Source: a virus | Taxonomy: Duplodnaviria; Caudoviricetes | DNA: 64,000 bases | Virus record (IMG/VR): IMGVR_UViG_3300015050_000842 | Span: 1-64,000 of that record | Reading direction: 5' to 3' (one strand) | In this document: piece by piece, positions 3,929-35,543 of the stretch | Position numbering within the stretch: position 1 is the first letter of the stretch | Layout of the letters: each line of letters starts with the position of its first letter | The notes under the pieces: generated by a model | Told to the model about the DNA's origin: nothing | Databases searched by the model: none | Seen by the model: only the letters and a program-made list of their open reading frames with translations | Position numbers and translations under genes: made by a program

Positions 3929-4254
3929 TTATCCTTATGATTTAACATAACCTCATCAATTCTCCCATGAACAACCTTGAATTGTTTATCAGTTTCCTCT
4001 CTGTGGTTTTTTAACTCATTACGTATTTCCTTATTAAAGGATTCTAACCCTGCCTGAACTGCCCTTGTTATTGTTTCTGACCGTTCACGCTCTTGACGTA
4101 GAATCTCTGCTTCACGTTCCTCTTTCTTGCTTTTAAAGGAAGCCCGAATCCACGTATTTACCGCTATCAATAAAGCTAATATAAACCCAAGTGCAGGGAT
4201 TGTTTGCGCCCAATAATCTTGTGAATCTTCATTCATCGTCTTTACATAAATCAT
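3925..4254 (-). CDS. Membrane protein, holin/antiholin-like
   Basis: One N-terminal TM segment plus a coiled coil, directly upstream of the lysin. Confidence 0.55.
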   Translation of the reverse strand: MIYVKTMNEDSQDYWAQTIPALGFILALLIAVNTWIRASFKSKKEEREAEILRQERERSETITRAVQAGLESFNKEIRNELKNHREETDKQFKVVHGRIDEVMLNHKDK

Positions 4255-9493: not shown

Positions 9494-12400
9494 TTAATCG
9501 GGTGCTACTTGTAATGTTTTTGTTTTACTTTCAAGTAATTCTTTCATTTCTTTAGTAGCGTGAGCCTTAGCACCTGACATTAACATCTTGTTTTTTGCTT
9601 CGGGAGTATTTACTACTCTACCATCTTTAACTGCTTGTTTAAAAGATTCATCAAATTCAACTGACCCTTTTTTGTTCCTAATGTATTCTTTAATTAGCTT
9701 GTTTCTTTTATCAATCAGTCTTTTATCAAGGCTATACTTTACATCGTTAATTTCTATCTGTTGCAATTCAGGGTCTTGAAATCCAAATTCCTTTTGAACT
9801 TTTTGTGTTGCTGAATACTCTATTGCACTAATAAAAGATTTTATTTGTTTTTCACTAAGGTCTTTCAGTTTAGGCATATTTGTCTTTATAGACTTATATA
9901 CTTCTTCACTCCATAGTTTATCATATTTCTTAGCTTCTTTGATAGATAGATAAGTTTTAACTCCATCCCTTAATATTGCTTCATCGGAATTTGAATTAAT
10001 GTTTAATCCATTATCTCTTAAAAAACCGATTATTTCTTTATCTTTTGTAGGAATAACCGCTTCAATACTACGCATATAGGTTCTGTCAGGTCTGAAACCT
10101 AAGTAGTCAAATGCCCCATAGTTAAAGAATCCATTTAAGATGCCTACGTTCTCAAAATCTGAACGCATGGAAGGTTGACCTGAAATACCTCTCGTAATAC
10201 CCTCTAAATCTCTTACAAACCTAATAGAGAATAGGGGTAAGTCAAAGTTGCCACCGACAACATTAGCTATCTGACCAAATGCTTTCTCTCTTGCAGGTGG
10301 ATTGTTTTTATTAAACTCTTTTAGTGCTTTTGCTAATTTAGGCATTGCTTCGTACTTCGCAGATTTATCAAATGTATCAGCTATCCACTTAGCAAATTCC
10401 TCCCTATTCATAGCTAATGCCATTAAGGTCATTTGCGGAATTAATGCTGACTCATATCTTTTAAACCACGCATTTCTTTTTCTCCATTCCTCGTACTCAT
10501 CGTCACCACCTGATGCGATTAAACCTAATGTAATCAGTCCTGATGCTACGCCACCTATCAATACCCTCCTTGTAACAGTTTTTCTCCTAAAGTCATCAGT
10601 CAAGTATTCTTCAAGTCTTTTTACATCGTCAGGACTTGATAGGTCTATCTTATTCAATGTTTTTCCCCACCACATTCTTAATGGAGAAATTACATCAAGA
10701 CCTTGTTTCTGTAATCCTAATACTAACCAATTCGTTCCACCTCCGACAAAAGGATTAAGGAAATTTCTATTGAATGTTGCAGTAAGTGTGTACATCGCTG
10801 CTTTATTCCAATCCTTTTCTTTAATCGCTTTCTTAATACGTTCCTCAATAAATGCTTGGTATCTATTCACCATTTCAGATACAATATTGTTTGCTTCGTG
10901 ACCTAATCCATAACCTGCAACTTTATAGGCTGAATCATACGCTGCTTCAATCATTTCTACGGTAACAACATTTCCTGACAATAGATTAGCCTTAACTAAA
11001 TCCATTGCACCACGATATACATTCTCTTTATTGTTGGCTAATACCTCTATACCTGCTTCTGAATTAATCTTGTCTATGATTCTTTCTGACTCTTTTAAAG
11101 CATCCTCGAATTTCTGACCTATAAGTTGTTCATTAATGTACTTAGACGCTTCTTCGGCAGTCATTCTGTTAGGATTAGTTTTATCTGTCATTACTTTTAA
11201 TAATGCAGTCCTAAAGAAAGTTTCTGTCAACGATGCCTTGTTCATACTATCAGCACCTTCTAAATAAGATTTTGCTAATGCAACAGATACAACGTAGTGA
11301 TATGCCCTATTTTTGCTTAATCCGTTAATGTAGTCCTCGATTTGACTTTTGGTTAGGAACGGTGTATTTATCTCACCAAAGTAAAGACCTGCATTTTTAG
11401 TAATATCAGCTTTAATAGTTTTGCTATACTTCTTAATTAACGCATCAAACTCTTTATCACTCAACTCACCGCTTAATAGTCTGCCTACTTCTTGAATTAC
11501 TCTTTCCTGACGACCTGAAATTTGGTTATCTAAGAACTGTTTTACGGATTGTAGCTTTGTTCTTAACATTAAGTTAAATATCTCCGAAGCGGTTTGAATA
11601 AACTTAAATGTATTTGTTCCTTCTTGCCACGCAACCTTGTTAAGCAACTTAGTTATTTTTAGGTTTATCTCCCTAATGAAATGCTTTGAGAAAAACTCAT
11701 TATCATTCATTGAGTACAAGTCTTTCAAAGACGAAGCGAATCTTTCCGCTTCAAAGAACGCTTCCTGACCAATATCACTTAATCCTAATGCTTTATTCAG
11801 TAAGTATTTAAACTCATCGGGATTCTTGTCAAACAGTCCTAAGTCGTACAATTCAGCCAATCTCCTTGCACTACTCTTTCTTGACGTAGGTGATTTTGGA
11901 GTATTTGCTCGTTCAAGTTCTTTTAATGCTTTGGAAACAATGTCTGCCCTTAAATCTTTAATCTCCTGCATAAACGCTTCTTTCATACGTTCTATCTGAA
12001 CATCAGAAAATCCTTTACCCTTTAAAGTCTTTTCAACTATCTCGGTAATGTTGTCGATACTACCTTCCTCTCCTGCGAGTTTCTTCCAATCCAATACTTG
12101 ACGTTTCTCTTTATCTTGCTTAGTGGTGACAGTAATTTCTCTACCATACCCTGCCTCGATTAGAGCCGTTTTAGTGAACTCTTTTGGATTAGGGTCTATT
12201 TGGTTAAGTAAATCTATCTTAGCCTTTCTAATGGCTTTTAATTGCTCTATTTGAGGTGTTGATAATGGGTCTTTCCTTTCCTTTTGAACTTTCTCTTGTT
12301 TTGATATTTGTTCGTCAAGGTCTTTCAACTCATTCTCTAACTTAGTAACAACCGACTTTTCTTTAGACTCATTAATTCTGTCGATAGATTCTTGCGTTAG

Positions 12401-15400
12401 GTATTGATTAGCGACTGTCTTTAATGCTTTCTCTTGTTGTTGTAATGCAACGAGTTCGGCATCTGTTTCAGGCTTGTTTCTAATCTTTAACTCTTTCTTC
12501 TTATCCGCTATCTCTTGCTCTAATTCAGTAATACGTTCTTTAGTTCGTTCTTTAGCTTTCTCAATTCTGTCTTTTGGAGTTTTGCTTTCACTTGCAATAA
12601 CATCACGAATATCTTGAACTGTAATATCGGGCGCAATATCTTTAACGGCATTTAGTATTTCTGATGAAATTTCATTTATCTTAGTAATTCCTAATTCGGC
12701 AAATAGCTTTGTTAGTTTAATAATATGTGGAGTAGCTACTTTTACCTGCTCTGCATAAGGGATTGAAGACATAGCACCACCACCACCTCTTGCTGACTTA
12801 ATTAGGTCTTTACGTAGCTTTTCAATCTCTGCTTTAATATCAGCCTTTACTACCTTTGAGTCACGTTTAACTTTTGGTGCTTCAATGATAATATCATCTG
12901 ATTCTTGTTCTTGTGATTCAGCTTCTTCATTAATAGCATCCATATCCGACTGAATAGCTTTCTCAACTTTTCTTCTGCCATCTAATTGCTTAGTTGTAAA
13001 GAATTGGTCTGTTACTGCTTCAATGTCGTAACCTACCCTTGCTAATTGACGTAACCTACCTAATCCTAATGCTCTTGCTACGGTACGCTGATATTTGATA
13101 GTAATATTCTGTACTAACTTCTCTTGCTTTTTAAGCGTGAGATTATCAGGGTCGTCAAGCAACTGCTTATTCAGGTCGTTCTCTAATGATAGTAGGATTA
13201 AACTTGTGTTGTCTATTCCGAGTGTGCTTGTGTTGTCACGAATGAAAGCTAACAATCCCTCTACGTATTTGTCGCCAAACTCTTGTTTTGCTTGTTCGAT
13301 AATATCTGCCCCTAATTGGAATGTATCTAATATCTTTTTTACACGATATTCTTTTTCTTGCTTAGATAACTCTCTGCCACTTTCTCTTTCTTTATTGCTT
13401 AAAGTATCTTTGAACTCATTGGAGTCTATGCTTGTGTGAGCAAGTTTAACAAACTCTGGACTTGCTTTTGCATCCGACTTAACTTCATCAAATATTGGTT
13501 CAGTTTCCTCAAAGTCACTTTCTACTTTCTTCTTACCTCCATTTGCTTCGTTCCAAGCATCCTTTACAAAGTCGTTTACATCTTCACCGATTGCTTTAGC
13601 AAAATCTTGAACAGTCTTTACTCCTGCTTCAATATAGGCTAATGCTTCTTCTAATAATGCTTTGTGATAGTTAAATAATGCTTTAGCTTTTTCTTTAGGG
13701 TCTTGTGCTATTCCTAAGTTTCTGTTTAGAGCATCAAGTTTTGCTTTTGCTTCTTTTCTATTTTGAGCAAGTTCTTCAATCTTTGTTAGCGCCTTTTTAG
13801 GTTCTTTTTGCTTATTTTCTTCGTTTTTTGACTTTAAATCAACTTTTGATAAAGCGCCTTTCTCTGCCTTTAAAGCATCAGCTTCGGCACTAAACCGTTC
13901 TCTAATCTTTTCTACTGCATTGGGATTAGCTTTTTCATTTTTAGCTTGTTCGTAGATACCTGCTTCTTTCAAAGCATCGTGGAATTTAGCCATGACCTTA
14001 CGTTGGTCTTTCTCTATCTCTGCTAAAGTTCGAGTTGACTTTTTGGTTTCGGTTTTTGTGCCTTTTGTATCTTTTTGATTTGATACATTCTCTTGGCTTT
14101 CTGTGCTTGTGTTAATTTCATCTTCTGTAAAGTTAAGTTCTTGATTTTTTTCTTCTTCGGATAGGTTATTAAACCACTCGTCATACTCTTTGGCTAACTC
14201 TGCTTCATTGGCGGTTATTTCAGCTATATCCTCGCTTGTAAGGTCGTTATTATACGCATCTGATATAGGAACAAACATTCTGTTATTAATTGCACCTGAA
14301 CCTTGTGTGAAGTTATATCCACCTTCCTCTTTAGCTTTGTTAATAGCTTTAATAAGTCTACGTGCAGGGGCGGTATCTTTTCCTGCTAATATATCTTTCT
14401 GACCTTTACGAATATCAGTCCATTCCATACCCAAATCAGGTCGTGGACTAAATCTATCACCATCCCAAGTAATAGCACCTTTCTCTATTTCCGACTTAGC
14501 AAATTCTACTTCTTGCTTCTCCCTGCTTTCTGTAACGATATTGCTATTGCTTGGCGTTGTTTGGCTTTCTGCGACATTACTTTCTTGGTATTGCCTATCT
14601 TCTTGCTTCCCTTGTTGCTGTTCAGTAACTCCCTCACGTTCTGTGATATTACTTTGTTCGATGTTCCCTTGATTAACGGCATTTTCTTGTTCGTTTAAAA
14701 ATTTATTAATTTTCTGTTCACTCCATTCGTCAGAAGTCATATCAATAGTAGTGACATCTGCTTTTATTTTAGTGTTTCCCTTAACCGCTTCGGTAGATAT
14801 TCTGTGGTGTCCGTCTAAAACAAATAGACCGTCATTAAATCTAACAAGTTTAGGATTACCGATAGTGAGTTTTCCGCCTATTCCTGACTTGTCAACCAAT
14901 TCTTGTGTTGGTGTAATTTCAGATAAGTCAACTGTTTCCTCTTTTGTATTGTCTTTATTTTCAGAAATAAAAGGTTTAAATTGTGGACTATCGACATCTG
15001 GCAAACCTACATTATTTGATTTATTTTTAAAAAACTGCCTTGTTGGATAAACGTCTTTTGCTTTTACGCCTTCCATTTTAGCAAGACCTTCTTCTGAAAA
15101 ATTTAATCTAATAGATTTTGGTTTTTCAATTTCAGATATAGTGACATCTGCTTCTTCGGTGTCAATTGTTGGTTTTTCAAGTGGGGGTATTTCTTGCGCT
15201 TTTTCTTTCGGAACTGATTGAGTTTCTAATTCGTACTGTTGCTTAGATATTTCTTCCAATTCCCCATCCTCTCCTAATTGCTTATACCACTTATCCCTTT
15301 CAGGGTCTTTTGAATACTTAAATTTTTCATCTGCCGTAGCTTCAATAATATTATCGTTAAGACTTTGTTTTTTGGCTTCAAGAATATCTATATCTTGTTG

Positions 15401-16906
15401 TGCTTGTGGTGCTAAAGACTCGTCATAAGCCTTCATTTGTTCTTGCTTAACCTTTATGGCTTCGGCAACATTATCTCTCTCTACAATGGCTTGTATAGCT
15501 TCCTTACGTTTTTTAGCACCTATATCAAAAGGTATAACTTCCGTAGCTTTAATATACTTACCTAAATTTGTTCCTATTTCATTCCACCTATCAGCATCTA
15601 AAGAACCATTATTATACCTATCAGATAATTCTTTTTTTAGTTCAGACGCTATTTCATATAATGTTTCTTTATTTGTAGCTGATGAAACTCGCTCTGCCAC
15701 CATATCATCAACTGATTTCATCCCACGTAAAGCACTCCCTGTAATGCCACCCAATACCGCACCGCCTCCAATTTCATTAATTCTATTTTTCCAAAAATCT
15801 TCTACAACCTCTTGCTCGTTAAATATGCCAAGATTTGATGTTATATTGGTTAAACCTTTTAGAATATCAGTAGATAAACCTGTTATCCCCTCTGTTCCAC
15901 CCTCAACACCTGCCGATGCAATACCTTTTAATCCTACTGATTTGAATTTATTTATTCCTTTTTTAGCTATACGACTTGCAGTTTCTTCGATAACATCTGC
16001 CGTAATCTTTCCTGTTGTTTTTGTTGCAAGTTCTTGTACTGTTTCCTTTAAAATAGCTTCCTTCACTTTTTTAGCAACAGGATTACTCTTGGTCATAAAT
16101 CCTAATGAATATCTATCGGCAATACTACTGATTGTACTATAAGCGATTCCAAAAATTTCTCTTGCATTATCTAATCCAACAGGGTCATCAGTAGTTCTGT
16201 TTCCTACTGCTTTGTCAAACTCTTTAAGACCTTGACTATAACCTTGTGCTAAGTATGATGCGCCTGCTGTTGGAATTGCAAGACCCATATCCCCTGCAAA
16301 CCTTGAAATCATTAATGGAAGTGCTTTAGCGTTTTCTTTTGTAAAAACTCCTTTAGTTAAATCAAAACCCTGTTGAACTTCTTCTTCGTATTTTTTTGAG
16401 GATGAACCTGAACGTAATTTTTCAGTAACTTGCTCTGCTTTTCCTCCAAGTACATCGGCAGTCGCTTTCATTATCGGGTTTCCGTATGGATTAGACTTGG
16501 CAATAAGTCGTGTCATTCCACCTAAAAAATCTGAACCTGAACCTATAAGTTGGTTATACATAGCACCGAGATAATTGTTATCATCTTCTACGGCTTCTGA
16601 AATAGTTTTAGGCTTTACCTTTGGCTTAACGTAGGGGGTAGGTTTAGTATCGACAGGGCTTTGGAAAGGCTCGAAGCCACGATTTGAAGTCTGTGTACCA
16701 CTCGTTGAAACGGGTGTAGTAAGTTCTTTTTTTTTTATTTTGGTTGAAAAAGTATCGAAATCACCCAAATCATATTCCGCACCAACGCCATCGTAAAATG
16801 CTTTACGCTTAGTATCATCTTGTAGCTTTACTTGAAATTCATCAAATGAACCTACATTATAATCCTTAGATACTGCATCGTATAATATTTTTACTTTATC
16901 AGGCAT
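9494..16906 (-). CDS. Giant (2470 aa) internal virion/ejection protein with a ParB/Srx-like domain
   Basis: Largest of three genes after the tail stabilisation gene; helical and charged; N-terminal LYD..S..Y.+G.FDEF repeat; VDLSEITPTQ...VLDGHHR at about 14750-14940. Confidence 0.7.
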   Translation of the reverse strand: MPDKVKILYDAVSKDYNVGSFDEFQVKLQDDTKRKAFYDGVGAEYDLGDFDTFSTKIKKKELTTPVSTSGTQTSNRGFEPFQSPVDTKPTPYVKPKVKPKTISEAVEDDNNYLGAMYNQLIGSGSDFLGGMTRLIAKSNPYGNPIMKATADVLGGKAEQVTEKLRSGSSSKKYEEEVQQGFDLTKGVFTKENAKALPLMISRFAGDMGLAIPTAGASYLAQGYSQGLKEFDKAVGNRTTDDPVGLDNAREIFGIAYSTISSIADRYSLGFMTKSNPVAKKVKEAILKETVQELATKTTGKITADVIEETASRIAKKGINKFKSVGLKGIASAGVEGGTEGITGLSTDILKGLTNITSNLGIFNEQEVVEDFWKNRINEIGGGAVLGGITGSALRGMKSVDDMVAERVSSATNKETLYEIASELKKELSDRYNNGSLDADRWNEIGTNLGKYIKATEVIPFDIGAKKRKEAIQAIVERDNVAEAIKVKQEQMKAYDESLAPQAQQDIDILEAKKQSLNDNIIEATADEKFKYSKDPERDKWYKQLGEDGELEEISKQQYELETQSVPKEKAQEIPPLEKPTIDTEEADVTISEIEKPKSIRLNFSEEGLAKMEGVKAKDVYPTRQFFKNKSNNVGLPDVDSPQFKPFISENKDNTKEETVDLSEITPTQELVDKSGIGGKLTIGNPKLVRFNDGLFVLDGHHRISTEAVKGNTKIKADVTTIDMTSDEWSEQKINKFLNEQENAVNQGNIEQSNITEREGVTEQQQGKQEDRQYQESNVAESQTTPSNSNIVTESREKQEVEFAKSEIEKGAITWDGDRFSPRPDLGMEWTDIRKGQKDILAGKDTAPARRLIKAINKAKEEGGYNFTQGSGAINNRMFVPISDAYNNDLTSEDIAEITANEAELAKEYDEWFNNLSEEEKNQELNFTEDEINTSTESQENVSNQKDTKGTKTETKKSTRTLAEIEKDQRKVMAKFHDALKEAGIYEQAKNEKANPNAVEKIRERFSAEADALKAEKGALSKVDLKSKNEENKQKEPKKALTKIEELAQNRKEAKAKLDALNRNLGIAQDPKEKAKALFNYHKALLEEALAYIEAGVKTVQDFAKAIGEDVNDFVKDAWNEANGGKKKVESDFEETEPIFDEVKSDAKASPEFVKLAHTSIDSNEFKDTLSNKERESGRELSKQEKEYRVKKILDTFQLGADIIEQAKQEFGDKYVEGLLAFIRDNTSTLGIDNTSLILLSLENDLNKQLLDDPDNLTLKKQEKLVQNITIKYQRTVARALGLGRLRQLARVGYDIEAVTDQFFTTKQLDGRRKVEKAIQSDMDAINEEAESQEQESDDIIIEAPKVKRDSKVVKADIKAEIEKLRKDLIKSARGGGGAMSSIPYAEQVKVATPHIIKLTKLFAELGITKINEISSEILNAVKDIAPDITVQDIRDVIASESKTPKDRIEKAKERTKERITELEQEIADKKKELKIRNKPETDAELVALQQQEKALKTVANQYLTQESIDRINESKEKSVVTKLENELKDLDEQISKQEKVQKERKDPLSTPQIEQLKAIRKAKIDLLNQIDPNPKEFTKTALIEAGYGREITVTTKQDKEKRQVLDWKKLAGEEGSIDNITEIVEKTLKGKGFSDVQIERMKEAFMQEIKDLRADIVSKALKELERANTPKSPTSRKSSARRLAELYDLGLFDKNPDEFKYLLNKALGLSDIGQEAFFEAERFASSLKDLYSMNDNEFFSKHFIREINLKITKLLNKVAWQEGTNTFKFIQTASEIFNLMLRTKLQSVKQFLDNQISGRQERVIQEVGRLLSGELSDKEFDALIKKYSKTIKADITKNAGLYFGEINTPFLTKSQIEDYINGLSKNRAYHYVVSVALAKSYLEGADSMNKASLTETFFRTALLKVMTDKTNPNRMTAEEASKYINEQLIGQKFEDALKESERIIDKINSEAGIEVLANNKENVYRGAMDLVKANLLSGNVVTVEMIEAAYDSAYKVAGYGLGHEANNIVSEMVNRYQAFIEERIKKAIKEKDWNKAAMYTLTATFNRNFLNPFVGGGTNWLVLGLQKQGLDVISPLRMWWGKTLNKIDLSSPDDVKRLEEYLTDDFRRKTVTRRVLIGGVASGLITLGLIASGGDDEYEEWRKRNAWFKRYESALIPQMTLMALAMNREEFAKWIADTFDKSAKYEAMPKLAKALKEFNKNNPPAREKAFGQIANVVGGNFDLPLFSIRFVRDLEGITRGISGQPSMRSDFENVGILNGFFNYGAFDYLGFRPDRTYMRSIEAVIPTKDKEIIGFLRDNGLNINSNSDEAILRDGVKTYLSIKEAKKYDKLWSEEVYKSIKTNMPKLKDLSEKQIKSFISAIEYSATQKVQKEFGFQDPELQQIEINDVKYSLDKRLIDKRNKLIKEYIRNKKGSVEFDESFKQAVKDGRVVNTPEAKNKMLMSGAKAHATKEMKELLESKTKTLQVAPD

Positions 16907-19332: not shown

Positions 19333-20280
19333 TTACCCTCTTACACCTATAAAACTCTTTTGTGAATTAACTGCAACTGAAAATAACCTCAACTTCGTAG
19401 ACTCCGTAGTAATAATCTCTACTAATATCCAATTGCCCTTTAATACATCACCGTTCACTATTCCACCGACACTATTTATATCTCGCATAAATGAAGCTGA
19501 ATACACGCCCTCTACGCTATTGATTGTTACTGTTGTGACTCCGTCATCCAATGTAGATTTTGTGAAGTCCTCGGCTATTAAATCGCTTACCTGACCTAAA
19601 CTTGTTTCTACTCCTTCCTCTGTGGTTATCATTAGCATATTACTCTGTATCGACATACTCTCAAACGTGCTTACAAAAGTGACGTTCTGATTGAAAGGCA
19701 TATTGATAATCGTATTATACTGCACTCCGTAGAAATTATTACGACTAGCTGAATTATTTTCGTGTAAGTATAACTGTCCCTCTTTAAACGTATAAAGGTT
19801 GATAAACAGTCCAAATCCGCAGTCAGGGTTGTAGGTATAGAATGAACTCCACTTATTGTTTTTCTCGCTATAAACGATATTGTTACGCTGTTTAGCAGTA
19901 GTAACCGTTGCGGTGTTTTTTATGTTGAAGATTGAAACTACGCAGTCCGCAGTAGAATAGAACCGTAGTCGTGGACTTGACCCTGCACAAAGTAAAGTTT
20001 CCTGAAAGAATCCTGTGGTTATGCGTTGCGTTCCTGCCGTTGTACCCATAAATGCCTGTAAGTATAATACCCCTGCACTTCCTGTGATACTTGTTATCGA
20101 ATACGTTATCTCGTAGGTCTGTCCTGCTTCAATCGTATAACCGTTTAAGTAGATACTCCCTGCATTACACGCTTCGTGAGTGGCAATATTATCAGCAAAA
20201 GACCAACCTGTTGTAACAGACTGTGCTACTAAATCAATATCTATTGGCGTATTTTCAAGCGTGGTGAAACTCATACCCAA
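19333..20280 (-). CDS. C-terminal half of the crAss-like tail stabilisation (muzzle) protein, with its own N-terminal beta-sandwich domain
   Basis: IVYSEKNNKWSSFYTYNPD...YTFKEGQLYLHEN...RNNFYG matches the conserved C-terminus of this family. Confidence 0.7.
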   Translation of the reverse strand: MGMSFTTLENTPIDIDLVAQSVTTGWSFADNIATHEACNAGSIYLNGYTIEAGQTYEITYSITSITGSAGVLYLQAFMGTTAGTQRITTGFFQETLLCAGSSPRLRFYSTADCVVSIFNIKNTATVTTAKQRNNIVYSEKNNKWSSFYTYNPDCGFGLFINLYTFKEGQLYLHENNSASRNNFYGVQYNTIINMPFNQNVTFVSTFESMSIQSNMLMITTEEGVETSLGQVSDLIAEDFTKSTLDDGVTTVTINSVEGVYSASFMRDINSVGGIVNGDVLKGNWILVEIITTESTKLRLFSVAVNSQKSFIGVRG

Positions 20281-20286
20281 AGATAG

Positions 20287-21075
20287 TTACATTTTAAAAT
20301 ACTTTTTATAGTAGGTGTAGTTCAGTTTATTGACGTTCTGCATCAGAAAAACAATGTACGGGTTGTATAGTCTTTCAAGTTCAAAGTGATTAATCGGTGT
20401 TAATCTCTCCTTTGCGTAATCCGTAGATTTCTCTTTATGGTTTTCAAAGTTATTAGGGTTGTCTATATCTCCGCTTTGTTTATGTCCTGCAATCTCTTGT
20501 GGGTCTGACCAATTAAAACAGTAACTTGGAACGTAGTTTTTGTTATGTTCATCTAACTCTCCCTCATCTCTTAACTTAGAATACCAACTTAATCCCTCAT
20601 ATCCTGTTAGGTCTGTTCTGAATCCTATTTCTCTTATCCTATCCATTTTAACAATAACACTTGCTTCCATTGTGTTACGTGATAACTCTATTCCGTTGGC
20701 ACTTGCAAATAATGAGTATTCAGGTTTCCACGCATCTTTGCCTGTTTCTTGAATCTCTTTGACTGCTTGTTCAATATGCCACTTGAAATACAAATCGTCA
20801 TCGTCTCCGAGCATGAAATAATCCCCTGTGGCGTGAGTTATAGCATCTGTAAGTATTTCCCCTCTGTTCTTATAATCTTCGTTTGTAGCGTAGTATTTGG
20901 CGTTATTCACTACAATTATAGAGTCATCCTTGAATCCTAACTCAATCGGGTGTTCGGTATCGGTATTAAAGATGATTAGTTCCTTATTTTGGTAGGACTG
21001 TGCCTGATACATGGCTACTATTCTACGTACGCAGTAGAATCTTCTATACGTAGTACAAACGAAGCTGACTTTCAT
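20287..21075 (-). CDS. Glycosyltransferase family 2
   Basis: VSFVCTTYRR...QSYQNKELIIFN...YFMLGDDDDLY (GT-A fold with DxD). Confidence 0.85.
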   Translation of the reverse strand: MKVSFVCTTYRRFYCVRRIVAMYQAQSYQNKELIIFNTDTEHPIELGFKDDSIIVVNNAKYYATNEDYKNRGEILTDAITHATGDYFMLGDDDDLYFKWHIEQAVKEIQETGKDAWKPEYSLFASANGIELSRNTMEASVIVKMDRIREIGFRTDLTGYEGLSWYSKLRDEGELDEHNKNYVPSYCFNWSDPQEIAGHKQSGDIDNPNNFENHKEKSTDYAKERLTPINHFELERLYNPYIVFLMQNVNKLNYTYYKKYFKM

Positions 21076-21684
21076 CTAAATAAATTTATTTGTTTCATTA
21101 CCCCAAGAATACCAACCATTTGAATTTTGACGAGCAAATAATTCTAATTTAATTGCATCAGGGTATAGTTCTTCAATTCTTGACCTTGCATCATTTGGTT
21201 TTCTACTATGCTCTTTGCGTTCTGCTTCAATCAACTGCCTTACATTGTTTGATTTCTTAAAATCTTTCATACTTCCTTTTATGCCAAGCAAACATATTTC
21301 AGTTGATTTTAGAGTATGTGGTGCAAAATTTAAAACTGTTTTACCTGTACTTGTTTTTTTAAGCCAAACAAAAGCAATAGTTTTATACTTAAATCCCCAT
21401 GATTCCATTACTTCAATACCATCTTTTAAGTGACTATCAGTAACCCACATAAAACAAGCACAATTTTTATCAGTAATTTCTTTTACAGGTAGTTCTTTTA
21501 TTTGGTCAATAGTCATTGTAGCATAAATACGTTCAATAGTCCTAAATCTATTTTCTCGTTTATCACTACCTTTTTTTTTATCTCCGTATAACTCCTTACT
21601 TCCATATTGCCAAGCAGGGTCAGCATAAATAACATTGTATTTTCTACCCTTGCAAAACATTAATAAATTATCCGAATCTTCCAT
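21076..21684 (-). CDS. MT-A70 family N6-adenine methyltransferase
   Basis: YNVIYADPAW, FMWVTDSHL..GIEVMESWGFKYKT, EHSRKP, KLELFAR. Confidence 0.9.
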   Translation of the reverse strand: MEDSDNLLMFCKGRKYNVIYADPAWQYGSKELYGDKKKGSDKRENRFRTIERIYATMTIDQIKELPVKEITDKNCACFMWVTDSHLKDGIEVMESWGFKYKTIAFVWLKKTSTGKTVLNFAPHTLKSTEICLLGIKGSMKDFKKSNNVRQLIEAERKEHSRKPNDARSRIEELYPDAIKLELFARQNSNGWYSWGNETNKFI

Positions 21685-21685
21685 T

Positions 21686-22276
21686 TTACCTAAATAATAA
21701 TACTTGGCTATCCATAAAATACAATACTCTGAATCCGTTTTTAATCAGATAAGGTATGCTTAACTTTCCTTTACCGTTCCACTCATCATCAAAAACATCG
21801 TCAATAAGCACAAAACAGTTATCATTTAACTTATTCCAAACTGCCTTTAGTTCGTTCAACTGATGTTCGTGGCATTTACGTACATTTTCTTCATCACCAC
21901 AGTAATCAAAGCTATCTAAGAACAGAAAGTCTATTGGTCTGTGAAAGTTTTTAAGAAACTCGATGCTATCTTGCTTTTTGTAGGTTACGTATTGACTTTC
22001 AGGAACGACTTCTTTGGCTTTAGATAAATGATTGTCGTCTATATCCACTACGTACACACTTGAATTGGTTAGTTTAGCATACCACTCCCAATTTAATGTA
22101 CTCCAACCATCACCGAATCTGCTTTCCTCTGTTGTGTTTCGGATGCAACCCGTTTCAACAATGACTATTGGTCGGCTATACGTGGCTAATAATAGGTTTA
22201 ATACGTTAGTAAAGGACTTATGACGACCTGTTATCGGTCTATCAGAACTGATTTCTTGCCAACTTCCTGAATCCAT
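21686..22276 (-). CDS. Class I SAM-dependent methyltransferase (Methyltransf_24-like); start uncertain
   Basis: IVETGC...VYVVDID...DSIEFL...IDFLFLDS...VLIDD. Confidence 0.8.
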   Translation of the reverse strand: MDSGSWQEISSDRPITGRHKSFTNVLNLLLATYSRPIVIVETGCIRNTTEESRFGDGWSTLNWEWYAKLTNSSVYVVDIDDNHLSKAKEVVPESQYVTYKKQDSIEFLKNFHRPIDFLFLDSFDYCGDEENVRKCHEHQLNELKAVWNKLNDNCFVLIDDVFDDEWNGKGKLSIPYLIKNGFRVLYFMDSQVLLFR

Positions 22277-23169
22277 TGATAGTATTTTTTTGATGCTGTT
22301 TCCGCTTTGATATGTAAAGGTACATTATATGGTAGACAATTCATATAGTCGCACTTATAAAATAATTCACTTTTATTATCAACTACTCCTGCGTTGTGAA
22401 AAATGTTGTACTGATTATACACTTCCTCACTACTTGTACCCCAACTGAAATCAAAATTTTCATGTACCACGGTTTCATATCCACGTTTCCAACCGTTCCA
22501 TAATACCGAAAACATATCGCTACACCAAATTTGCAATTCGTGATAATCGGGCTTTTCTTTTTTGATTTCGTTGTTTAAGTCCGTAATTTCTTTGAACAAT
22601 CGCTCTGAATCTCTTTCACATTCAGCCCAATAATCAGCATCTATTCCTTTCATTAGATACTGCGCCCCGATACAGTTTAATTCATTCGATATAACGAGTT
22701 CTTTGTCTATTCCGACAATATCACACATCGCATCCAATATCTGCTCTCCTTTGCCTCGTATGTACTCCGCAGAGATATAGAATCGTGTGTTTGAACCGTA
22801 CCACTTATTATCAGTCAGCATTTCTTCCGTAATCCAACTTGTAGGTGGCTTAGTAAATATTATATCGCAGTCGTGATAGAAAATAACCTCGTCTTTTAAT
22901 TCAGGGAATCTCTGCCAATGTTGCTTTAAGATATTTGGTCTTATTGAGGAAATGTAGTGTCGTGTTTCTCTCGTATCGTTGTAGAACAAGAATCGTGCAG
23001 GGTAGTGATTAGCTAACTTACTCCACGTATTAGGAATTACACCGTTCTCTTTATAGCATACAATGTCTATTTGATTAGGGTTAATACCCATAGCCATGAA
23101 ATTTTGTAGCATTACTTCCGTTTGCCAAACATAGTAAGCAGTACAAGGTTGTGCAGAAACAAATCTCAT
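22231..23169 (-). CDS. GT96/GT95-like (SERGT1/HPAT-type) protein O-glycosyltransferase
   Basis: MRFVSAQPCTAYYVWQT..F...G and YISSIRP....HW...IFYHDCDIIFTKP parallel the plant SERGT1 (C..YFDWQT; INKP; D.DMI) and HPAT (NRP; DH.F..P) motifs. ATG at 23169 lies 1 nt after the upstream stop. Confidence 0.65.
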   Translation of the reverse strand: MRFVSAQPCTAYYVWQTEVMLQNFMAMGINPNQIDIVCYKENGVIPNTWSKLANHYPARFLFYNDTRETRHYISSIRPNILKQHWQRFPELKDEVIFYHDCDIIFTKPPTSWITEEMLTDNKWYGSNTRFYISAEYIRGKGEQILDAMCDIVGIDKELVISNELNCIGAQYLMKGIDADYWAECERDSERLFKEITDLNNEIKKEKPDYHELQIWCSDMFSVLWNGWKRGYETVVHENFDFSWGTSSEEVYNQYNIFHNAGVVDNKSELFYKCDYMNCLPYNVPLHIKAETASKKYYQWIQEVGKKSVLIDR

Positions 23170-23170
23170 A

Positions 23171-26100
23171 TTACATGAACGATGTCGTTGTTGTACTTGT
23201 GGTTGTCGGTGTTGAAGCACAAACTACAATATTGGTTACATTTCCATTCACATCCACGTTTCCTACATATCTGATTGCTAAATCATCAGCCGTACTGAAA
23301 CTTACAAAGTCACCGTCATTTGGAACTCCTGTCCACTCTCCAACTAATATTGAAGTGTTGAAGAATTGTGTTACTGTCATAGGGTCGTTAGACGCTGCGT
23401 AAACAGTTATCGGTTGTCCGTAAAGCGGAGTCATAACAGCACACGCATCAGGTCTACTTGCAGGGTCACTTCCATACAGTCTGTACTCTCTCGGTGCAGC
23501 AGTAGTGGTAGTTGTTGTTGTCGTAGTCGTTGTGGTCGGCTCTGGCTCGGTTGTCGTAGTCGTAGTCGGTGCTGCGGTTGTGGTCGTAGTTGTAGGTGCA
23601 ATTGTTGTTGTAGTCGTAGGCGCAACCGTTGTAGTGGTTGTGGTTGTTGGTGCAATCGTAGTCGTTGTAGTCGGTGCGATTGTGGTTGTAGTTGTTGTAC
23701 TTGTAGTAGTGGTTGTAGTTGTGGTAGCAACCGCAGTAGTCACAGTATAAGTATCAGATACGCAACCAACAGTTAATGTAGTCGATACAGCAGTACTTGG
23801 ACTTGCAGATGCAGTAACCCTTACCTCTACATAATCATTATTTACAACTGTTCCTGCAACACTTGTCCAACTGCCTGTTCCGTTCACACGATATTCACCA
23901 CCGCCTCCTGAAATACTAATTGCAGTCGGAATGTCAATGTCGATAATCAATACTTGATTGGAAGTATAAACCTCTCCCCATTGTGCATCAGTAACGTCTA
24001 AGAAGTTAATTACGTTAGGGCAGTCATCCCCTGCAACAATAGTTAAACAAACTCTTTTTGTCGTTAAAACACCACCACTCGGAGTAAAGCTAAACGTGAA
24101 GTTGTCTGTGCCTGTTTCCCCTGTATTTGGAGTGTAGGTCGCAATCCCTGTTCCTGTATTGTACGTAGCAACCCCCTTTGTTCCTTGCGCCGTTAAGCTA
24201 ATATCAGCAGGCGGAATAACATACGTATCGTCTAACTGCCAATTCAATTCATTGAACGGAGTATCAAACAGTATATCACCCTCTGTTTCGGTAGTTAATA
24301 GATACTCGTTGTAGAAAATATCGTAGTAGCCGATAATCTTTTTCCCTGCCTCATAAGCCTCTTGAAGCACTCTCTTGAAGTATTTGCTGTTCTTGCCTGA
24401 AATCGTGTCTACACCGTCTAATCCTGCCCGTATAGGCTCACTTCTGAAAGGGTCAACAAAGTAAATGTTGTTATTCCACTCTGCATAGCTTTCTTTGGCG
24501 TTACCCATTCCGATATTCTTACCGTTGTACCGTACACTATTGAATATTTGAGTGCTTAACGCATATTGTTCTGCCGAAGATTGGTCTTCCACGATTGTTT
24601 GGAATACAGGAACATAACCTACCTTTAACTCCTGCAACACCACTAAGACGTTGTTTCTTTGGCGTATCTTTCTAATCCAACCGTAATTGGATGAAGTTTC
24701 TCCGTCACCATCACCATAAATACTTTCAGGATAAAATCGTGTCAATCCATTTACCAATGAATCACGTTGGAATACCTCTGAATATCTGATACTCGCTTTA
24801 CGTTCTATTCTCCCTCTCTCATCGTTGTACGTTCTTGGCTTTCCATAAGAAGCATAAGCACTTGCATAGAAGTCGCTAAAGTTAAAGTCCTCAACAACTA
24901 AGCTATCCAACTGATTCAGGTCAACACCGTTTGCCATTTCACGGCTTTTCATGTACACATCACCTGCACGAATATCTCCCGAAGTAACGGTATGTACTCC
25001 GTTAGTTATTGGATAGGAAATGCCTACCTCATACATTAACTGTTCGGTGTACTCTGTTGTGCCACTAACTGTTTCTGTTCTCTGTTTAGGCGTGTAAATC
25101 TCTAATAATACGTTATTGTTCTCTAATGTAGCCTGTGATACACCTGACGGAATATTGACCTTTAGAATGTAGTCGATTATTGTCGGGTCTACCGTGTCAA
25201 TAACAATCTCAAAATCCACAACCTCCACATCAATCTTATCCAACCATACTTTCGGTGAAGTGTTATCCGCTAATATGTAATACACAAACGTACACCTATC
25301 TCCTGCTGAATATTCATAACTCAACACGCTTGACGGATAGGCTTCGTTGAATTTCTTTAACGGATTGATGTTAAACGCAAAATAAGTTGAAGTGGTAAGT
25401 GCTGCGTCTAAAGTCCCCTGAACCCACAATGTCGTTTGATGCGTGTTGTTTAACGATAATCCCCAACCGTAATACGCTGCGTCAGCAGGTGGGTCGTGGT
25501 ATATCTCCCAATGAATCATGGATGCTAAACCCTGTATTTGAGAATACGAAGGAGTTTTTACCACATAGTTTTCATCAGTACAAATAGGGAAGTATCTACC
25601 CCACTTATCCTTATACCACAAAAATGTCTGATAGCTTGAATTGGATTTTAATGCTGACCTTGATATTGATGCACCTGTTCCTGCCAAAGCTAAGTCAACA
25701 TTGACTAATAATGCTTTCTCTGTTCCACCGTCAGGGGTTTCGCTACTTCTTCTTGTAGTGAACTGTAAAACCCAATAGAGTGAATCGAATAAATACACCG
25801 TGGTAGGATAAGGCATTGTCGCAGCGAAAGCACGTACCGCAGCCTCCGTATCTCCGTCTTGTCCTGCCGTAACAGTATAAGTCATTGTTTCGTAAACAAC
25901 ATCGGCTAAATTGGAGGTTACTATCGTGAACTCATCACCTGTCTGTGCTGTCCCTGCATAGTAAATTCTTACCTTACGATACGATGTACCGCTTACTCTT
26001 TCTTGTTGCCAATTCTCTACTCGTAATGCTACCGTAGGGTCAGGTGGAACAACGGCTATGTCAGGGTTGTAATTCACTACCTGAACTAACACATCTGTTT

Positions 26101-27160
26101 CAGGTCTGTCATACCCCTCTGTAATTCCGCCTAATGCTAACTGATTGCCATTAATATTCTCTAAAGTTTCACACTTTAAAGGAACGTGGTCGTAATCTAA
26201 GTCGGTTTCTAAGGGGTCGACATTGCTATATAGTCCGTCATTATAGAAACAGAAATAGTACGTATTCGTAGTCGGGTCATACGCCTCTCTAATCTCTGCA
26301 TCTAAATCTATTGCAGTATCAGTAATTGTTAATATGTAATCCCTGTCAACGGTTAGTATATCAAAGAAGTCAAGTGTTCCGATTCGTGCTACTGCCTTTA
26401 TTGTTTGCACTCGGTCTGTGCCTATATCCAATCCTACTATCAATGTATTGTTTGATGTTACGCTTGTTCCAACGGAAGGAGTAGATTCGTTTGTCGGAAC
26501 TTCTCGCTTACTCATTATAGAATATACGCTGTACTCATTGTCTAAGTAGACGTACTGATACATGAATTGGAATAGGCTACCTTTTAATAGGTTTACAGAC
26601 CTTGTATCGTCACTTCCGAACTCTACCGTAGGCACAATCATTGGTTGCGCTTTGATAATTAAAAAGTCATTTTCGGTAAGTACATCGTAACCACCTGCCT
26701 CTAATCGTGTTAGATTAGTCATACAAGGCTGATAGTTTCCGTCAGTCCACGCTAATAGGTAGTCGTTGATTAACTTTATATCGTTGACGTAGTATTCAGG
26801 TGTTAAAGGAAGTATGTTTTCGTTATCAGAGTCAGTCAAATTCTCGAATACATTGGTTTGAGTATTCGCATCGTAATCTAACTTAGCGATAACGTGATAG
26901 AGTTGCGAGTTGAAAATAAAAGAATAGGCGGTACGAGTGATTTCAAAACCTGCTGCCCCGATTGCTTTGTTTATTCCTGTCGGGAGTGTGTTTGCTATTA
27001 ATGAATTGCTTTCAGGGTTGGTTGCAAGACCTTCTTCGCCATCCTCTGTGCCATTTACCCTTAAATTATACGAATCTACAAAATCTGACTGCCCGACAAA
27101 CTCAATGGCATCGTCAAGATTAAGACCTCCGTTATTAAATATTTTAATGTTTTCAGGCAT
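23171..27160 (-). CDS. Tail stabilisation (muzzle) protein, N-terminal half, extended by Ig/cadherin-like domains and a mucin-like poly-Thr stalk
   Basis: GGLNLDD..N start; VLQELKVGY..YFVDPFR..IR..GLD..IS...GYYD..YNEYLLT core; then a Big/cadherin-like domain, a second beta domain, the Thr tract and a Cys-flanked tip domain. Confidence 0.8.
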   Translation of the reverse strand: MPENIKIFNNGGLNLDDAIEFVGQSDFVDSYNLRVNGTEDGEEGLATNPESNSLIANTLPTGINKAIGAAGFEITRTAYSFIFNSQLYHVIAKLDYDANTQTNVFENLTDSDNENILPLTPEYYVNDIKLINDYLLAWTDGNYQPCMTNLTRLEAGGYDVLTENDFLIIKAQPMIVPTVEFGSDDTRSVNLLKGSLFQFMYQYVYLDNEYSVYSIMSKREVPTNESTPSVGTSVTSNNTLIVGLDIGTDRVQTIKAVARIGTLDFFDILTVDRDYILTITDTAIDLDAEIREAYDPTTNTYYFCFYNDGLYSNVDPLETDLDYDHVPLKCETLENINGNQLALGGITEGYDRPETDVLVQVVNYNPDIAVVPPDPTVALRVENWQQERVSGTSYRKVRIYYAGTAQTGDEFTIVTSNLADVVYETMTYTVTAGQDGDTEAAVRAFAATMPYPTTVYLFDSLYWVLQFTTRRSSETPDGGTEKALLVNVDLALAGTGASISRSALKSNSSYQTFLWYKDKWGRYFPICTDENYVVKTPSYSQIQGLASMIHWEIYHDPPADAAYYGWGLSLNNTHQTTLWVQGTLDAALTTSTYFAFNINPLKKFNEAYPSSVLSYEYSAGDRCTFVYYILADNTSPKVWLDKIDVEVVDFEIVIDTVDPTIIDYILKVNIPSGVSQATLENNNVLLEIYTPKQRTETVSGTTEYTEQLMYEVGISYPITNGVHTVTSGDIRAGDVYMKSREMANGVDLNQLDSLVVEDFNFSDFYASAYASYGKPRTYNDERGRIERKASIRYSEVFQRDSLVNGLTRFYPESIYGDGDGETSSNYGWIRKIRQRNNVLVVLQELKVGYVPVFQTIVEDQSSAEQYALSTQIFNSVRYNGKNIGMGNAKESYAEWNNNIYFVDPFRSEPIRAGLDGVDTISGKNSKYFKRVLQEAYEAGKKIIGYYDIFYNEYLLTTETEGDILFDTPFNELNWQLDDTYVIPPADISLTAQGTKGVATYNTGTGIATYTPNTGETGTDNFTFSFTPSGGVLTTKRVCLTIVAGDDCPNVINFLDVTDAQWGEVYTSNQVLIIDIDIPTAISISGGGGEYRVNGTGSWTSVAGTVVNNDYVEVRVTASASPSTAVSTTLTVGCVSDTYTVTTAVATTTTTTTTSTTTTTTIAPTTTTTIAPTTTTTTTVAPTTTTTIAPTTTTTTAAPTTTTTTEPEPTTTTTTTTTTTTAAPREYRLYGSDPASRPDACAVMTPLYGQPITVYAASNDPMTVTQFFNTSILVGEWTGVPNDGDFVSFSTADDLAIRYVGNVDVNGNVTNIVVCASTPTTTSTTTTSFM
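23490..23730 (-). repeat. Mucin-like (I/V/A)AP-T5-7 repeat region
   Basis: About 75 aa of mostly Thr punctuated by AP/EP; Thr codons are mixed (ACT/ACA/ACC/ACG). Confidence 0.95.
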
Positions 27161-33086: not shown

Positions 33087-35543
33087 CTATTGTGGCATCA
33101 TTTCTTCCTGTGGTATCATGCCTTGTTCTTCCATAGCCATCTGCTCCTGCATCATCTGTTCCTGTTGCATGGCTTCTTGTTCTTCTTGCATGGCTACGTT
33201 TTGCATCTGTTGGTCTAATAAAGCCCCTGATAAAGCGTTTGTTTGATTAATACCCTCCAATGCCCATGCAGGGATTTGCTCTATACTACCGCCCTCTTTA
33301 TTCAGTATAGACTTAATTACTTCTACTTTGGCTATTTGAGTGAACTTAATAGACTCACTTGATTTCAATGCCTCTATCTCGTCTAATCGTGCTTGTGCTT
33401 GTAGTTGCGATTTAAGCTGTTCCAATTTCATCTCACCGTTGGATTTTGCTTCCGCAGCAGCGACAGCAGCTTTAGTATTTTCTTGTGAATTAACCAACGC
33501 TTCCTCCATCTTTGCCTTCCTGCGTTTCTTTTCTCTCGATGCTAAAAGGTAACTTGCATACTTAATGTTGGACTTGGCAATTAATCTTACGTCTATTGCA
33601 TCTTGTAACGTGATAGTATCATTTGCTAAACATACCTGAATGTTCTGCTCCAACATCTGTGCTTCCTTATCGTCAATAACCGCTTCAATCTTTACATCGA
33701 ACTGTGCTTTCTCAAAGTCGTCTGTTGCCTCTACTCGGATATATTCAACTCTGTCGCTTCCTAATGCTTGTCTGTAACCATCGTAGTACGTGATACCGTC
33801 TTTCTTTCCGTAAACTAATATATCCCACAATCTCATCTGAACAATCTTAGCCGTTCTCTTAAACATATTCAGGTAGGCGTTGTAGATGTAGTTGGATGCA
33901 CTCTCACCAATTTGTCTTGCGTCTTGTAGGACTTGTTTACCTACCGCTTGATTGCTTAACTCACCCTCTGCTAAGTTGTTTGTACCTACAATTCGCATCA
34001 ACTTGTCGTACTCTGCGTTCCAAACTCCCATTAACTGATTTAGTTTATCGCTAAACGGTACATTCTTTGGTTGGATTGGTGCTTGTCTTTGTCCCTCTCC
34101 GTCATCTTCTTTCCTTTTATAATACTGAATACCTGTTTGCTTGTAGATTCTGTAAATATCAAACGGAGATAGGTTTTTAAGGTCTTGCCCTAATGTAATG
34201 TCGGACATTGTGGAAATATCAACCTCAAATCCATCGGGGGCTGCTGCTGCGATTATCTTTTGTTGCTGTAAAGCCACCAATTGCATAATCTTAATACTCG
34301 GTATCATGGTTTCAATCATCGGCTTGTTCACCATGTTATGATTGTTATACATATACACCACGTATGGCAACTTAATCTCGGTCAGGTTTTCTTGTGGCTT
34401 AATCATGTTCTTAGCTAAACCCCACTCTAACACATAAGAAGTATCTACAATGTACCTACCGAAATACTCTACGTAATACGGTTTGCTTTTCTTGTACTTA
34501 ACTCCTTCTTCTTCTTGTGAAAACCACTCTACCTTAGTTAGTTTCTCTGTTCCGAACCTGTCTTCCCAAACCTTATACTTTAGTCCGTACAAGGTCTTTA
34601 ATGAACACTCAACAACCGTAACAGTAAACGAGTCGTAAGGTCTTGCTAAAGCAAACTCCCACATCGGATTCCAGTCCCAACTCCATTCATTCGCATTGCC
34701 GTTCACCCCTTTTTGGCTACGTGCCAACTCAAATAGCTTTTGCTCTGATATTTTATTAGGGTATTGTAGTCTAATATCCATAATACTCATTTGAGTACAC
34801 CTACCCATATATTGAGCATCTTCTAAATCGTCACGATTCGCATAGCCACTAATAATGTTTTCAGGTTTTTCAAATGGAGTCTTAATGCGACCATTCGGGT
34901 CTATGTACGGACATATCATGGATATACCGCAATTAATTAAGTCTGTAAGGATTCGGTCTTTAATTACGTCAGACCAACTGTTATCGTAGAAAACAAGGTC
35001 AATGCCTTGTTCCATAATCACTTCTTCTCTTTCTTTGTAGTTGAATCCAAACTCAATGTCGATTTCTGCTTCGCTTTCAGGGTCATCCTCATTAAATTCT
35101 TCTAACTGTACTCCTGACTCTTGTTGGAGTTGCATGATTTGCTCTTTATTCTTTAACTTGAACAAGGCATCTGCTTTGGCTTTTTCTTTCTTGCTTTGTG
35201 AGAGTGGGTCTACTGCATTACATTGTATCTTTTCAATTCGTTGCAGGTATCTGTCCTTTAATCGGTTGATGAAAGGTATTGCTATCGGTAGTGGGTCGTA
35301 TGCTAAATTAACAACAGACATTTCACCATCTAAGTCCAATATATCCTTGAACTCGGTCATATCCTGCATCCCGAAAGCATAGGAACGGTTGTATTCAAAC
35401 CTGCGCTTCCTATCTCCTGCACTTTCAGCCGAACCTACTCTCCATCTTTCGTATATCGAGGTTAAAAACCTTAATCCGTATGCTTCACTATTTTTATCTG
35501 TATCTGATGCAAGAGGATTTGGTAATGTAGAAGATACTGCCAT
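33087..35543 (-). CDS. Portal protein
   Basis: 818 aa; NLAYDPLPIAIPF resembles the crAss-like portal NLDW.P.PI.PKF; Q/M/E-rich tail; after TerL. Confidence 0.88.
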   Translation of the reverse strand: MAVSSTLPNPLASDTDKNSEAYGLRFLTSIYERWRVGSAESAGDRKRRFEYNRSYAFGMQDMTEFKDILDLDGEMSVVNLAYDPLPIAIPFINRLKDRYLQRIEKIQCNAVDPLSQSKKEKAKADALFKLKNKEQIMQLQQESGVQLEEFNEDDPESEAEIDIEFGFNYKEREEVIMEQGIDLVFYDNSWSDVIKDRILTDLINCGISMICPYIDPNGRIKTPFEKPENIISGYANRDDLEDAQYMGRCTQMSIMDIRLQYPNKISEQKLFELARSQKGVNGNANEWSWDWNPMWEFALARPYDSFTVTVVECSLKTLYGLKYKVWEDRFGTEKLTKVEWFSQEEEGVKYKKSKPYYVEYFGRYIVDTSYVLEWGLAKNMIKPQENLTEIKLPYVVYMYNNHNMVNKPMIETMIPSIKIMQLVALQQQKIIAAAAPDGFEVDISTMSDITLGQDLKNLSPFDIYRIYKQTGIQYYKRKEDDGEGQRQAPIQPKNVPFSDKLNQLMGVWNAEYDKLMRIVGTNNLAEGELSNQAVGKQVLQDARQIGESASNYIYNAYLNMFKRTAKIVQMRLWDILVYGKKDGITYYDGYRQALGSDRVEYIRVEATDDFEKAQFDVKIEAVIDDKEAQMLEQNIQVCLANDTITLQDAIDVRLIAKSNIKYASYLLASREKKRRKAKMEEALVNSQENTKAAVAAAEAKSNGEMKLEQLKSQLQAQARLDEIEALKSSESIKFTQIAKVEVIKSILNKEGGSIEQIPAWALEGINQTNALSGALLDQQMQNVAMQEEQEAMQQEQMMQEQMAMEEQGMIPQEEMMPQ

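Follow-up and report, generated by a model that had tools for sequence, protein, structure and literature searches.

Genomic coupling of a phage glycosyltransferase family, remotely related to GT95/GT96, to poly-threonine tags

What would a glycosyltransferase (GT) reminiscent of plant enzymes do among the late genes of a bacteriophage, and on what would it act? A 312-amino-acid (aa) gene product encoded on the minus strand at 22231-23169 of a 64-kb stretch of phage DNA, hereafter the window, raises this question. The window covers positions 1 to 64,000 of the IMG/VR record IMGVR_UViG_3300015050_000842 (Duplodnaviria; Caudoviricetes), which is 73,893 bp long, carries direct terminal repeats and is rated complete. 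A previous sequence-only reading of the locus took the gene for a eukaryote-like homologue of the plant peptidyl-serine alpha-galactosyltransferase (SGT1/SERGT1, family GT96) and hydroxyproline arabinosyltransferase (HPAT, family GT95), and suggested threonine as its acceptor. The present study reveals a tight genomic coupling of this enzyme to poly-threonine (poly-Thr) tags across unrelated phages. The enzyme probably adds the first O-linked sugar to poly-Thr tracts in virion proteins of the phage itself, and a GT2-family glycosyltransferase and a methyltransferase would then elaborate the product.

Coupling of the transferase gene to poly-threonine tags

The transferase gene lies in a long late operon on the minus strand, which includes the terminase (36413-38599), the portal (33087-35543) and several virion structural proteins. 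Its open reading frame (ORF) translates without a stop into 312 aa. The ATG at 23169 is separated by a single base from the TAA of the upstream gene (23173-23171), and the N-terminus MRFVSAQP agrees with the family consensus M....AQP; therefore, this ATG is the right start. The alternative GTG at 23220 would create a 50-nucleotide (nt) overlap with the upstream gene. The coordinates given by the sequence-only reading were thus correct.

The upstream gene (23171-27160, minus strand) encodes a virion structural protein of 1329 aa, the proposed acceptor, whose N-terminus matches phrog_14478 (virion structural protein). It contains a poly-Thr linker of about 82 aa (23495-23740), 67% of which is threonine, arranged in seven blocks of 5 to 15 threonines that are split by IAP, VAP, AAP and EPEP. 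Furthermore, it ends in a C-terminal tag, TPTTTSTTTTSFM, encoded at 23174-23212, 4 nt before the start codon of the transferase. Neither the rest of the window nor the 9.9 kb of genome beyond it contains a further long poly-Thr run. All such tracts of this genome therefore lie in the gene that ends one base before the transferase gene. The suggestion that threonine is the acceptor fits this neighbour.

This arrangement recurs in related phages. We sampled 80 related IMG/VR loci, whose transferases are 48-66% identical, and counted as a poly-Thr gene any gene with at least seven threonines in ten residues. Such a gene stood at position -1 of the transferase in 54 of 77 loci and at position -2 in 13 of 72; every other position had a frequency of 0-6%, about 1% overall. 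The window's own upstream protein is common to only 4 of these related loci.

Cultured phages provide named acceptor candidates. Ten enzyme-positive Firmicutes phages have poly-Thr tags at the C-termini of capsid, tail-tube or major tail proteins, namely phiFL1A, R3.3, iLp84, 4995_1, CHPC836, SA2, bIL285, phiCTP1, VPE25 and LP65. In phiFL1A the major tail protein ends in GTTTTTSTTTTTTSSTTTTTTTQASSK, and the enzyme gene comes directly next. The major tail proteins of VPE25, SA2, CHPC836, iLp84 and R3.3 are tagged as well, and in phiCTP1 the tag is on the tail tube protein. In bIL285, orf50, an unannotated gene at the position of the major tail protein, encodes nine threonines at its C-terminus. 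Capsid proteins carry the tag in 4995_1, CHPC836, iLp84 and R3.3, the last being an unannotated protein at the capsid position directly upstream of the enzyme gene. In LP65, two threonine-rich proteins lie upstream of the enzyme, and one bears a structural annotation. The protein directly upstream of the enzyme in Chryseobacterium phage MA9V-3 contains an internal poly-Thr linker. Five Bacillaceae prophages share one gene order: a poly-Thr protein of the size of a major tail protein at -1, the enzyme, a gene of about 120 aa and a gene of about 1000-1400 aa; these prophage proteins are unannotated, and their roles are assigned from position and size alone.

The presence of the tag follows the presence of the enzyme. 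We compared the enzyme-positive phages with the enzyme-negative phages Javan47, Javan505, Javan311, Bassarid and phiJL-1, all drawn from a phage collection, whose major tail proteins are orthologous and 50-60% identical. The enzyme-negative proteins stop at, or just past, a conserved ...GETTGDY... block and lack the tag. Taken together, the poly-Thr tag was present in all 11 enzyme-positive cultured phages sampled, whereas none of the five enzyme-negative ones had it. In 401 Bacillota genomes just one match to the phiFL1A major tail protein turned up, which could not serve this gain/loss comparison.

Three of the cultured phages show additional short threonine runs. At positions 3946-4001 of the bIL285 locus, past the annotated end of the capsid gene and ahead of the transferase, TTTTTT is encoded at about 3956; the capsid protein may extend further at its C-terminus than annotated, or its gene may be recoded. 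In VPE25 (locus positions 1382-2560) and SA2 (810-890), proteins of the scaffold or protease region upstream of the capsid gene carry short runs of six to seven threonines. Because of these runs, the tag may not be limited to proteins of the mature particle.

Fold, family and kinship with GT95/GT96

The AlphaFold2 model of the transferase, built with 51 homologues, has a GT-A fold with a predicted local distance difference test (pLDDT) score of 97.4 and a predicted template modelling (pTM) score of 0.93. Among solved structures, its top neighbours are without exception retaining enzymes: glycogenin (Z 14.5), LgtC (Z 14.2), the Skp1 alpha-galactosyltransferase AgtA (Z 13.8), WbbM (Z 13.7) and the catalytic domain of UGGT (Z 13.6); LARGE1 is also among the nearest solved folds. 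Over the GT8 and GT24 neighbours, 227-245 residues could be aligned. Foldseek matched the model to solved structures with E values of about 2e-6 and template modelling (TM) scores of 0.40-0.51. The model thus places the fold in the retaining GT8/GT24/GT77 neighbourhood. Searches of PDB sequences with the protein and with its family profile gave nothing relevant. The closest match in BFVD is the phage protein A0A6J5SW30 (TM 0.93). Neither a signal peptide nor a membrane segment was detected in the protein, and the model has no terminal hydrophobic segment, its first beta strand starting at residue 2.

The residues expected of such an enzyme are in place, the overall pattern being a DxD motif and a C-terminal His/Lys block. 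The codons of D100-C101-D102 (22864-22872, minus strand) specify the DxD metal and nucleotide-sugar motif, which aligns to the D of HPAT EPD and of SGT1 DAD. Those of H258 ... G261 ... K272 (22354-22398, minus strand), in the context IFHNAG...LFYKCDY, specify invariant residues that align to the H, G and K of HPAT IIHYTYG...FDKRSY. The family alignment shows no variation at D102, Q170, H258, G261 or K272, and conservation of at least 90% at D100. The two motif blocks on which the sequence-only reading relied are both present, namely C9-TA-YYVWQT17 ... F24 ... G28 and Y72-ISSIRP78-NILKQ-HW85 ... IFYHDCDIIFTKP108, although the spacings it gave were wrong by one or two residues.

No model of Pfam-A or NCBIfam matched the protein. 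It matches phrog_4417, a family of unknown function, with E 3.8e-61 (residues 1-303 on positions 1-291 of the 293-position profile). The family comprises 1762 clusters at 90% identity in a word-indexed search, and an exhaustive HMMER scan at E ≤ 1e-3 yielded 822 representatives at 50% identity. It is present in 77 cultured phage genomes, with Lactobacillus, Enterococcus, Staphylococcus, Lactococcus, Clostridium and Chryseobacterium as hosts, and at 138 places in bacterial genomes, chiefly of Bacteroidota and some of Bacillota. It is, in short, a large prokaryotic or viral family. A homologue search from its most divergent member, LP65 orf49, returned four proteins only, none with a Pfam label. 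In longer relatives the domain is fused to GT7C, GT2, GT6, GT25, GT29, GT32 or GT61 domains, and in one relative to Methyltransf_24. Since the relatives fuse it to further GT domains, the transferase domain appears to be one step of glycan assembly. On the chromosomes of Chitinophaga, Pedobacter, Sphingobacterium and Mucilaginibacter it occurs in fusions of 500-590 aa with a GT7C/GT2-like domain, often in several copies per genome.

Is this family related to GT95/GT96? The Pfam model of HPAT, PF23452.1, did not match the transferase at E ≤ 1 and matched nothing across the whole genome; against 218 relatives it gave a sole match with E 0.23. PF23452 was likewise not found in five genomes that bear relatives, nor in the 401 Bacillota genomes. 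True PF23452 members from metagenomes score 140-438 bits with the Pfam model, whose gathering threshold is 23.9 bits. We obtained these HPAT/SGT1 sequences by scanning metagenome contigs for GW[IV].EMY[GA]Y[SA] and checking the ORFs with Pfam. The set consists of five canonical HPAT-type sequences (E about 1e-129 to 1e-131, full model coverage), one with a PAN domain (E 3e-116), four of algal type and one two-domain SGT1-type sequence (E 1e-40). The SGT1-type sequence contains, in the order seen in the phage protein, C..Y..WQT......F, Y....KP....HW and [IV]...D.D.I...P.

The narrow profile of the phage family matched the domain alignment of these true members in hhalign with 77.6% probability (E 1.9e-5, 240 columns). 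A broader profile of 245 family sequences matched an extended PF23452 set, to which further ORFs of the motif scan had been added before filtering at 90% identity, with 89.0% (E 2.3e-6, 219 columns). Every block was in register, with D102, M219, H258, G261 and K272 on the invariant D, M, H, G and K of the true-member alignment. The match exceeds chance, because reversed-sequence controls gave only 0.1-2.2%; the fused second GT-A domain of the relatives gave 1.2%. It is nevertheless a remote match, and a library-wide search would not be expected to find it significant.

The relation to GT8 has to be considered alongside. In hhalign a 10-sequence GT8 profile reached 84% against the narrow family profile and 47% (81 columns) against the broad one, while HPAT and GT8 compared directly gave 1-2%. 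With the narrower profile, GT8 thus appears as close as HPAT. With a home-built HPAT hidden Markov model (HMM) the transferase reached 12.0 bits and members of the family as much as 26 bits; the corresponding values for a home-built GT8 HMM were 4.3 bits and a maximum of 11.9 bits. The HPAT HMM outscored the GT8 HMM in 365 of 432 members, a rough measure, as the HMMs were built from sequence sets of unequal size. The Pfam GT8 model, PF01501, did not match the transferase at E ≤ 1. Regular-expression motif counts were uninformative for picking plant-like members. In the ESM Atlas, which we take as a lead only, the PF23452 label was carried by at least 10% of the members in 19 of the 30 nearest named clusters.

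No GT95/GT96 structure was present among the solved structures searched. For comparison, we used an AlphaFold2 model of a plant-type HPAT domain (pLDDT 88.6). Its best viral structural match in BFVD is again A0A6J5SW30 (E 7.6e-11, TM 0.68/0.64), the next having TM scores of at most 0.55. Its solved neighbours are the same GT8/GT24/GT6/GT77 set as those of the phage enzyme, and hence a GT8-type fold does not separate GT8 from HPAT. GT8 structures do head the list, an outcome that the sequence-only reading had expected to speak against a GT95/GT96 link; it is uninformative, as a true HPAT model returns the same GT8/GT24 list.

Both likenesses and differences can be listed. The phage and the plant/algal HPAT1-3 and SGT1/SERGT1 domains are each about 300 aa long and share the motif order Y..WQ..[VI]M; [RK]P....W; D.D or EPD followed by ..KP; W..[DE]M[WY]; H..G; F.K..Y. 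The plant enzymes start glycans on hydroxyl-rich repeats of structural proteins, and the phage enzyme would do likewise. Identity is 11-15%, however, and the Pfam HMM is blind to the phage protein. Furthermore, the phage enzyme lacks a membrane anchor or stem and is predicted to be cytoplasmic, whereas the plant enzymes are located in the Golgi; its presumed acceptor is Thr rather than hydroxyproline or Ser, and its hosts are phages and bacteria. With GT8 (glycogenin, LgtC) and the GT24 enzyme UGGT it shares the DxD motif and the C-terminal His/Lys region at Z 13.6-14.5, but the PF01501 model does not recognize it and its TM scores to solved GT8 structures are 0.40-0.51.

From these comparisons, we take the phage family to be a genuine but remote relative of GT95/GT96 and not a member of PF23452 as Pfam defines it. 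It seems somewhat closer to GT95/GT96 than to GT8, linking both. The homology proposed by the sequence-only reading therefore survives in a remote form (hhalign 78-89%, and the best viral match of the HPAT model), while Pfam membership does not, there being no PF23452.1 match. Its description of the gene as eukaryote-like has to be dropped. The family is very large in phages and in Bacteroidota and Bacillota, its enzyme has no membrane anchor such as the plant enzymes possess, and neither sequence nor structure comparisons gave any sign of a recent eukaryotic origin.

Proposed function and its alternatives

The gene product would be a soluble, cytoplasmic, DxD metal-dependent GT-A transferase, probably retaining, of the GT8/GT24/GT95-96 neighbourhood. 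It would move the first sugar from a nucleotide sugar onto the threonine hydroxyls of poly-Thr tracts. The acceptor here would be the 1329-aa protein, which is translated immediately before the enzyme, and the sugar would be added before or during particle assembly. Subsequently, a GT2-family glycosyltransferase of 262 aa (20287-21075, minus strand), a candidate for second-sugar addition, would extend the glycan, and a class I S-adenosylmethionine (SAM) methyltransferase of 196 aa (21686-22276, minus strand), possibly a sugar O-methyltransferase, would methylate it. We link these two genes to the enzyme because GT2 homologues follow it, 1-4 genes downstream, in 14 of the 80 related loci, and because the Methyltransf_24 domain of the methyltransferase is the one fused to the transferase in one relative. 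An exposed part of the particle would thereby acquire a mucin-like coat. What the data show are the fold, the conserved catalytic-type residues, the remote homology to plant protein O-glycosyltransferases and the genomic coupling; we infer which protein is the acceptor, which sugar is donated, by what linkage and with what anomeric outcome, and to what biological end, be it shielding, adhesion or stability.

Several observations weigh against glycosylation of the poly-Thr tracts. At about 30% of the related loci, position -1 is not occupied by a poly-Thr gene. Single-linkage clustering reduces the 54 poly-Thr upstream proteins to nine groups, one of which contains 41 of them, so the IMG/VR counts are not independent events. 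The fused forms of 500-590 aa on the chromosomes of Chitinophaga, Pedobacter and Sphingobacterium have no poly-Thr neighbour, and therefore the domain would not be restricted to poly-Thr acceptors; these fusions are probably cellular paralogues for polysaccharide synthesis. A DNA methyltransferase of the MT-A70 type sits in the transferase cassette. Poly-Thr is also conceivable as a plain flexible linker.

The last point belongs to an explanation that we regard as unlikely, though the least so of the three considered here. The enzyme might build or modify a glycan, such as a host envelope polysaccharide, teichoic acid or O-antigen, for receptor masking or serotype conversion, or might perform a later glycan step, the poly-Thr runs being flexible linkers. 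The two-domain glycosyltransferases without a poly-Thr neighbour on Bacteroidota chromosomes would suit such a role, as would the presence of the oligosaccharide-acting LgtC, WbbM and LARGE1 among the closest solved folds. However, the phage gene is found within late structural operons, right after capsid or tail genes, and not at lysogeny or moron positions, and its nearest named relatives are protein O-glycosyltransferases. Moreover, the tag is present in the enzyme-positive phages and missing from orthologous tail proteins of the enzyme-negative ones. The clustering of the upstream proteins, many of which share domains, raises a different and distinctly improbable explanation, namely that a mobile structural cassette carries the enzyme gene along with the poly-Thr modules, the enzyme being inactive or otherwise employed. 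Against a merely historical pairing, the tag occurs on non-homologous proteins (capsid, tail tube, major tail, and fibre- or muzzle-like proteins) in phages of both Bacteroidota and Firmicutes, and the catalytic-type residues are invariant over 51-85 sequences that are 30-90% identical to the window's enzyme.

The MT-A70 gene (phrog_359; 21076-21684, minus strand), two genes downstream of the transferase, could instead indicate a DNA glycosyltransferase that hypermodifies phage DNA together with this methyltransferase. There is precedent, since phage GT-A enzymes that glycosylate modified bases are described (Pyle et al. 2024, as cited in PMC12619734). However, MT-A70 homologues were found beside the enzyme in none of the 80 related loci, small temperate siphophages carry members of the family between their capsid and tail genes, and the family's distribution tracks the poly-Thr tags. 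We give this explanation very little chance. Because no homologue was found in the 80 loci, the MT-A70 gene looks incidental, and its link to glycosylation is doubtful.

The glycosylation of poly-Thr tracts has a parallel in mycobacteriophages, in which glycosyltransferases beside an O-methyltransferase gene modify capsid and tail-tube subunits at their C-termini (Freeman et al. 2023, Cell Host Microbe 31:1216, as cited in PMC11600133 and PMC12619734). The gene logic is alike, with a cassette of glycosyltransferase, methyltransferase and GT2 enzyme in our window, and the C-terminal site of modification resembles the C-terminal tags of the Firmicutes phages. Glycosylation in mycobacteriophages is experimentally shown, whereas the poly-Thr system is proposed from genomic coupling. 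The two citing papers do not mention a pure, genetically encoded poly-Thr tag for the mycobacteriophage system. Our literature searches found no paper linking the transferase family or poly-Thr tags to phage glycosylation.

Whether the coupling reflects a general system is a broader question, to which we would give even chances of a positive answer. In such a widespread, so far unannotated phage system, the poly-Thr tag on capsid, tail or fibre proteins would be the recognition signal for a dedicated initiating O-glycosyltransferase that provides a mucin-like coat, and the enzyme family would be a prokaryotic and viral sister of GT95/GT96, bridging to GT8. If so, many phages of Bacteroidota and Firmicutes would glycosylate their own particles by means of a simple, portable tag, among them phages infecting Enterococcus, Staphylococcus and dairy lactic acid bacteria, which are in use or under study in therapy and fermentation. 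Antibody recognition, adhesion to mucus or surfaces and virion stability would all be concerned. Besides, a low-complexity feature that is common in phage structural proteins would be accounted for, a family with more than 800 sequence clusters and hitherto no function would gain one, and glyco-engineering could draw on a tag and enzyme pair. The plant-specific GT95/GT96 enzymes would then be placed within a much larger prokaryotic and viral clade.

The downstream cassette and the genome

If the methyltransferase ORF is read from the first of its ATG codons (22276), it shares 46 nt with the 3' end of the transferase gene (22231-22276). This overlap is either a case of translational coupling or a sign that the true start lies further downstream.

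At the downstream edge of the cassette lies a gene for a 315-aa protein (19333-20280, minus strand) that weakly matches the C-terminal domain of the crAss muzzle (E 0.0056). The virion structural PHROG match of the 1329-aa protein is confined to its N-terminus. Since one match is N-terminal only and the other weakly of the muzzle C-terminal type, the four-gene cassette of transferase, two methyltransferases and GT2 enzyme may sit inside a split muzzle-type gene spanning 19333-27160.

In the same operon, an ORF of 2470 aa (9494-16906) has as its sole match a 60-residue N-terminal PHROG of unknown function. An 807-aa protein (41062-43485) carries a DNA methyltransferase domain at its C-terminus (phrog_2675) and is, besides the MT-A70 gene, the second DNA methyltransferase-like gene of the genome. 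Near 56 kb the coding strand, the GC skew and the AT skew change sign, and the GC content drops to about 0.29-0.31. The switch at about 56 kb is probably the boundary of divergent early and late modules.

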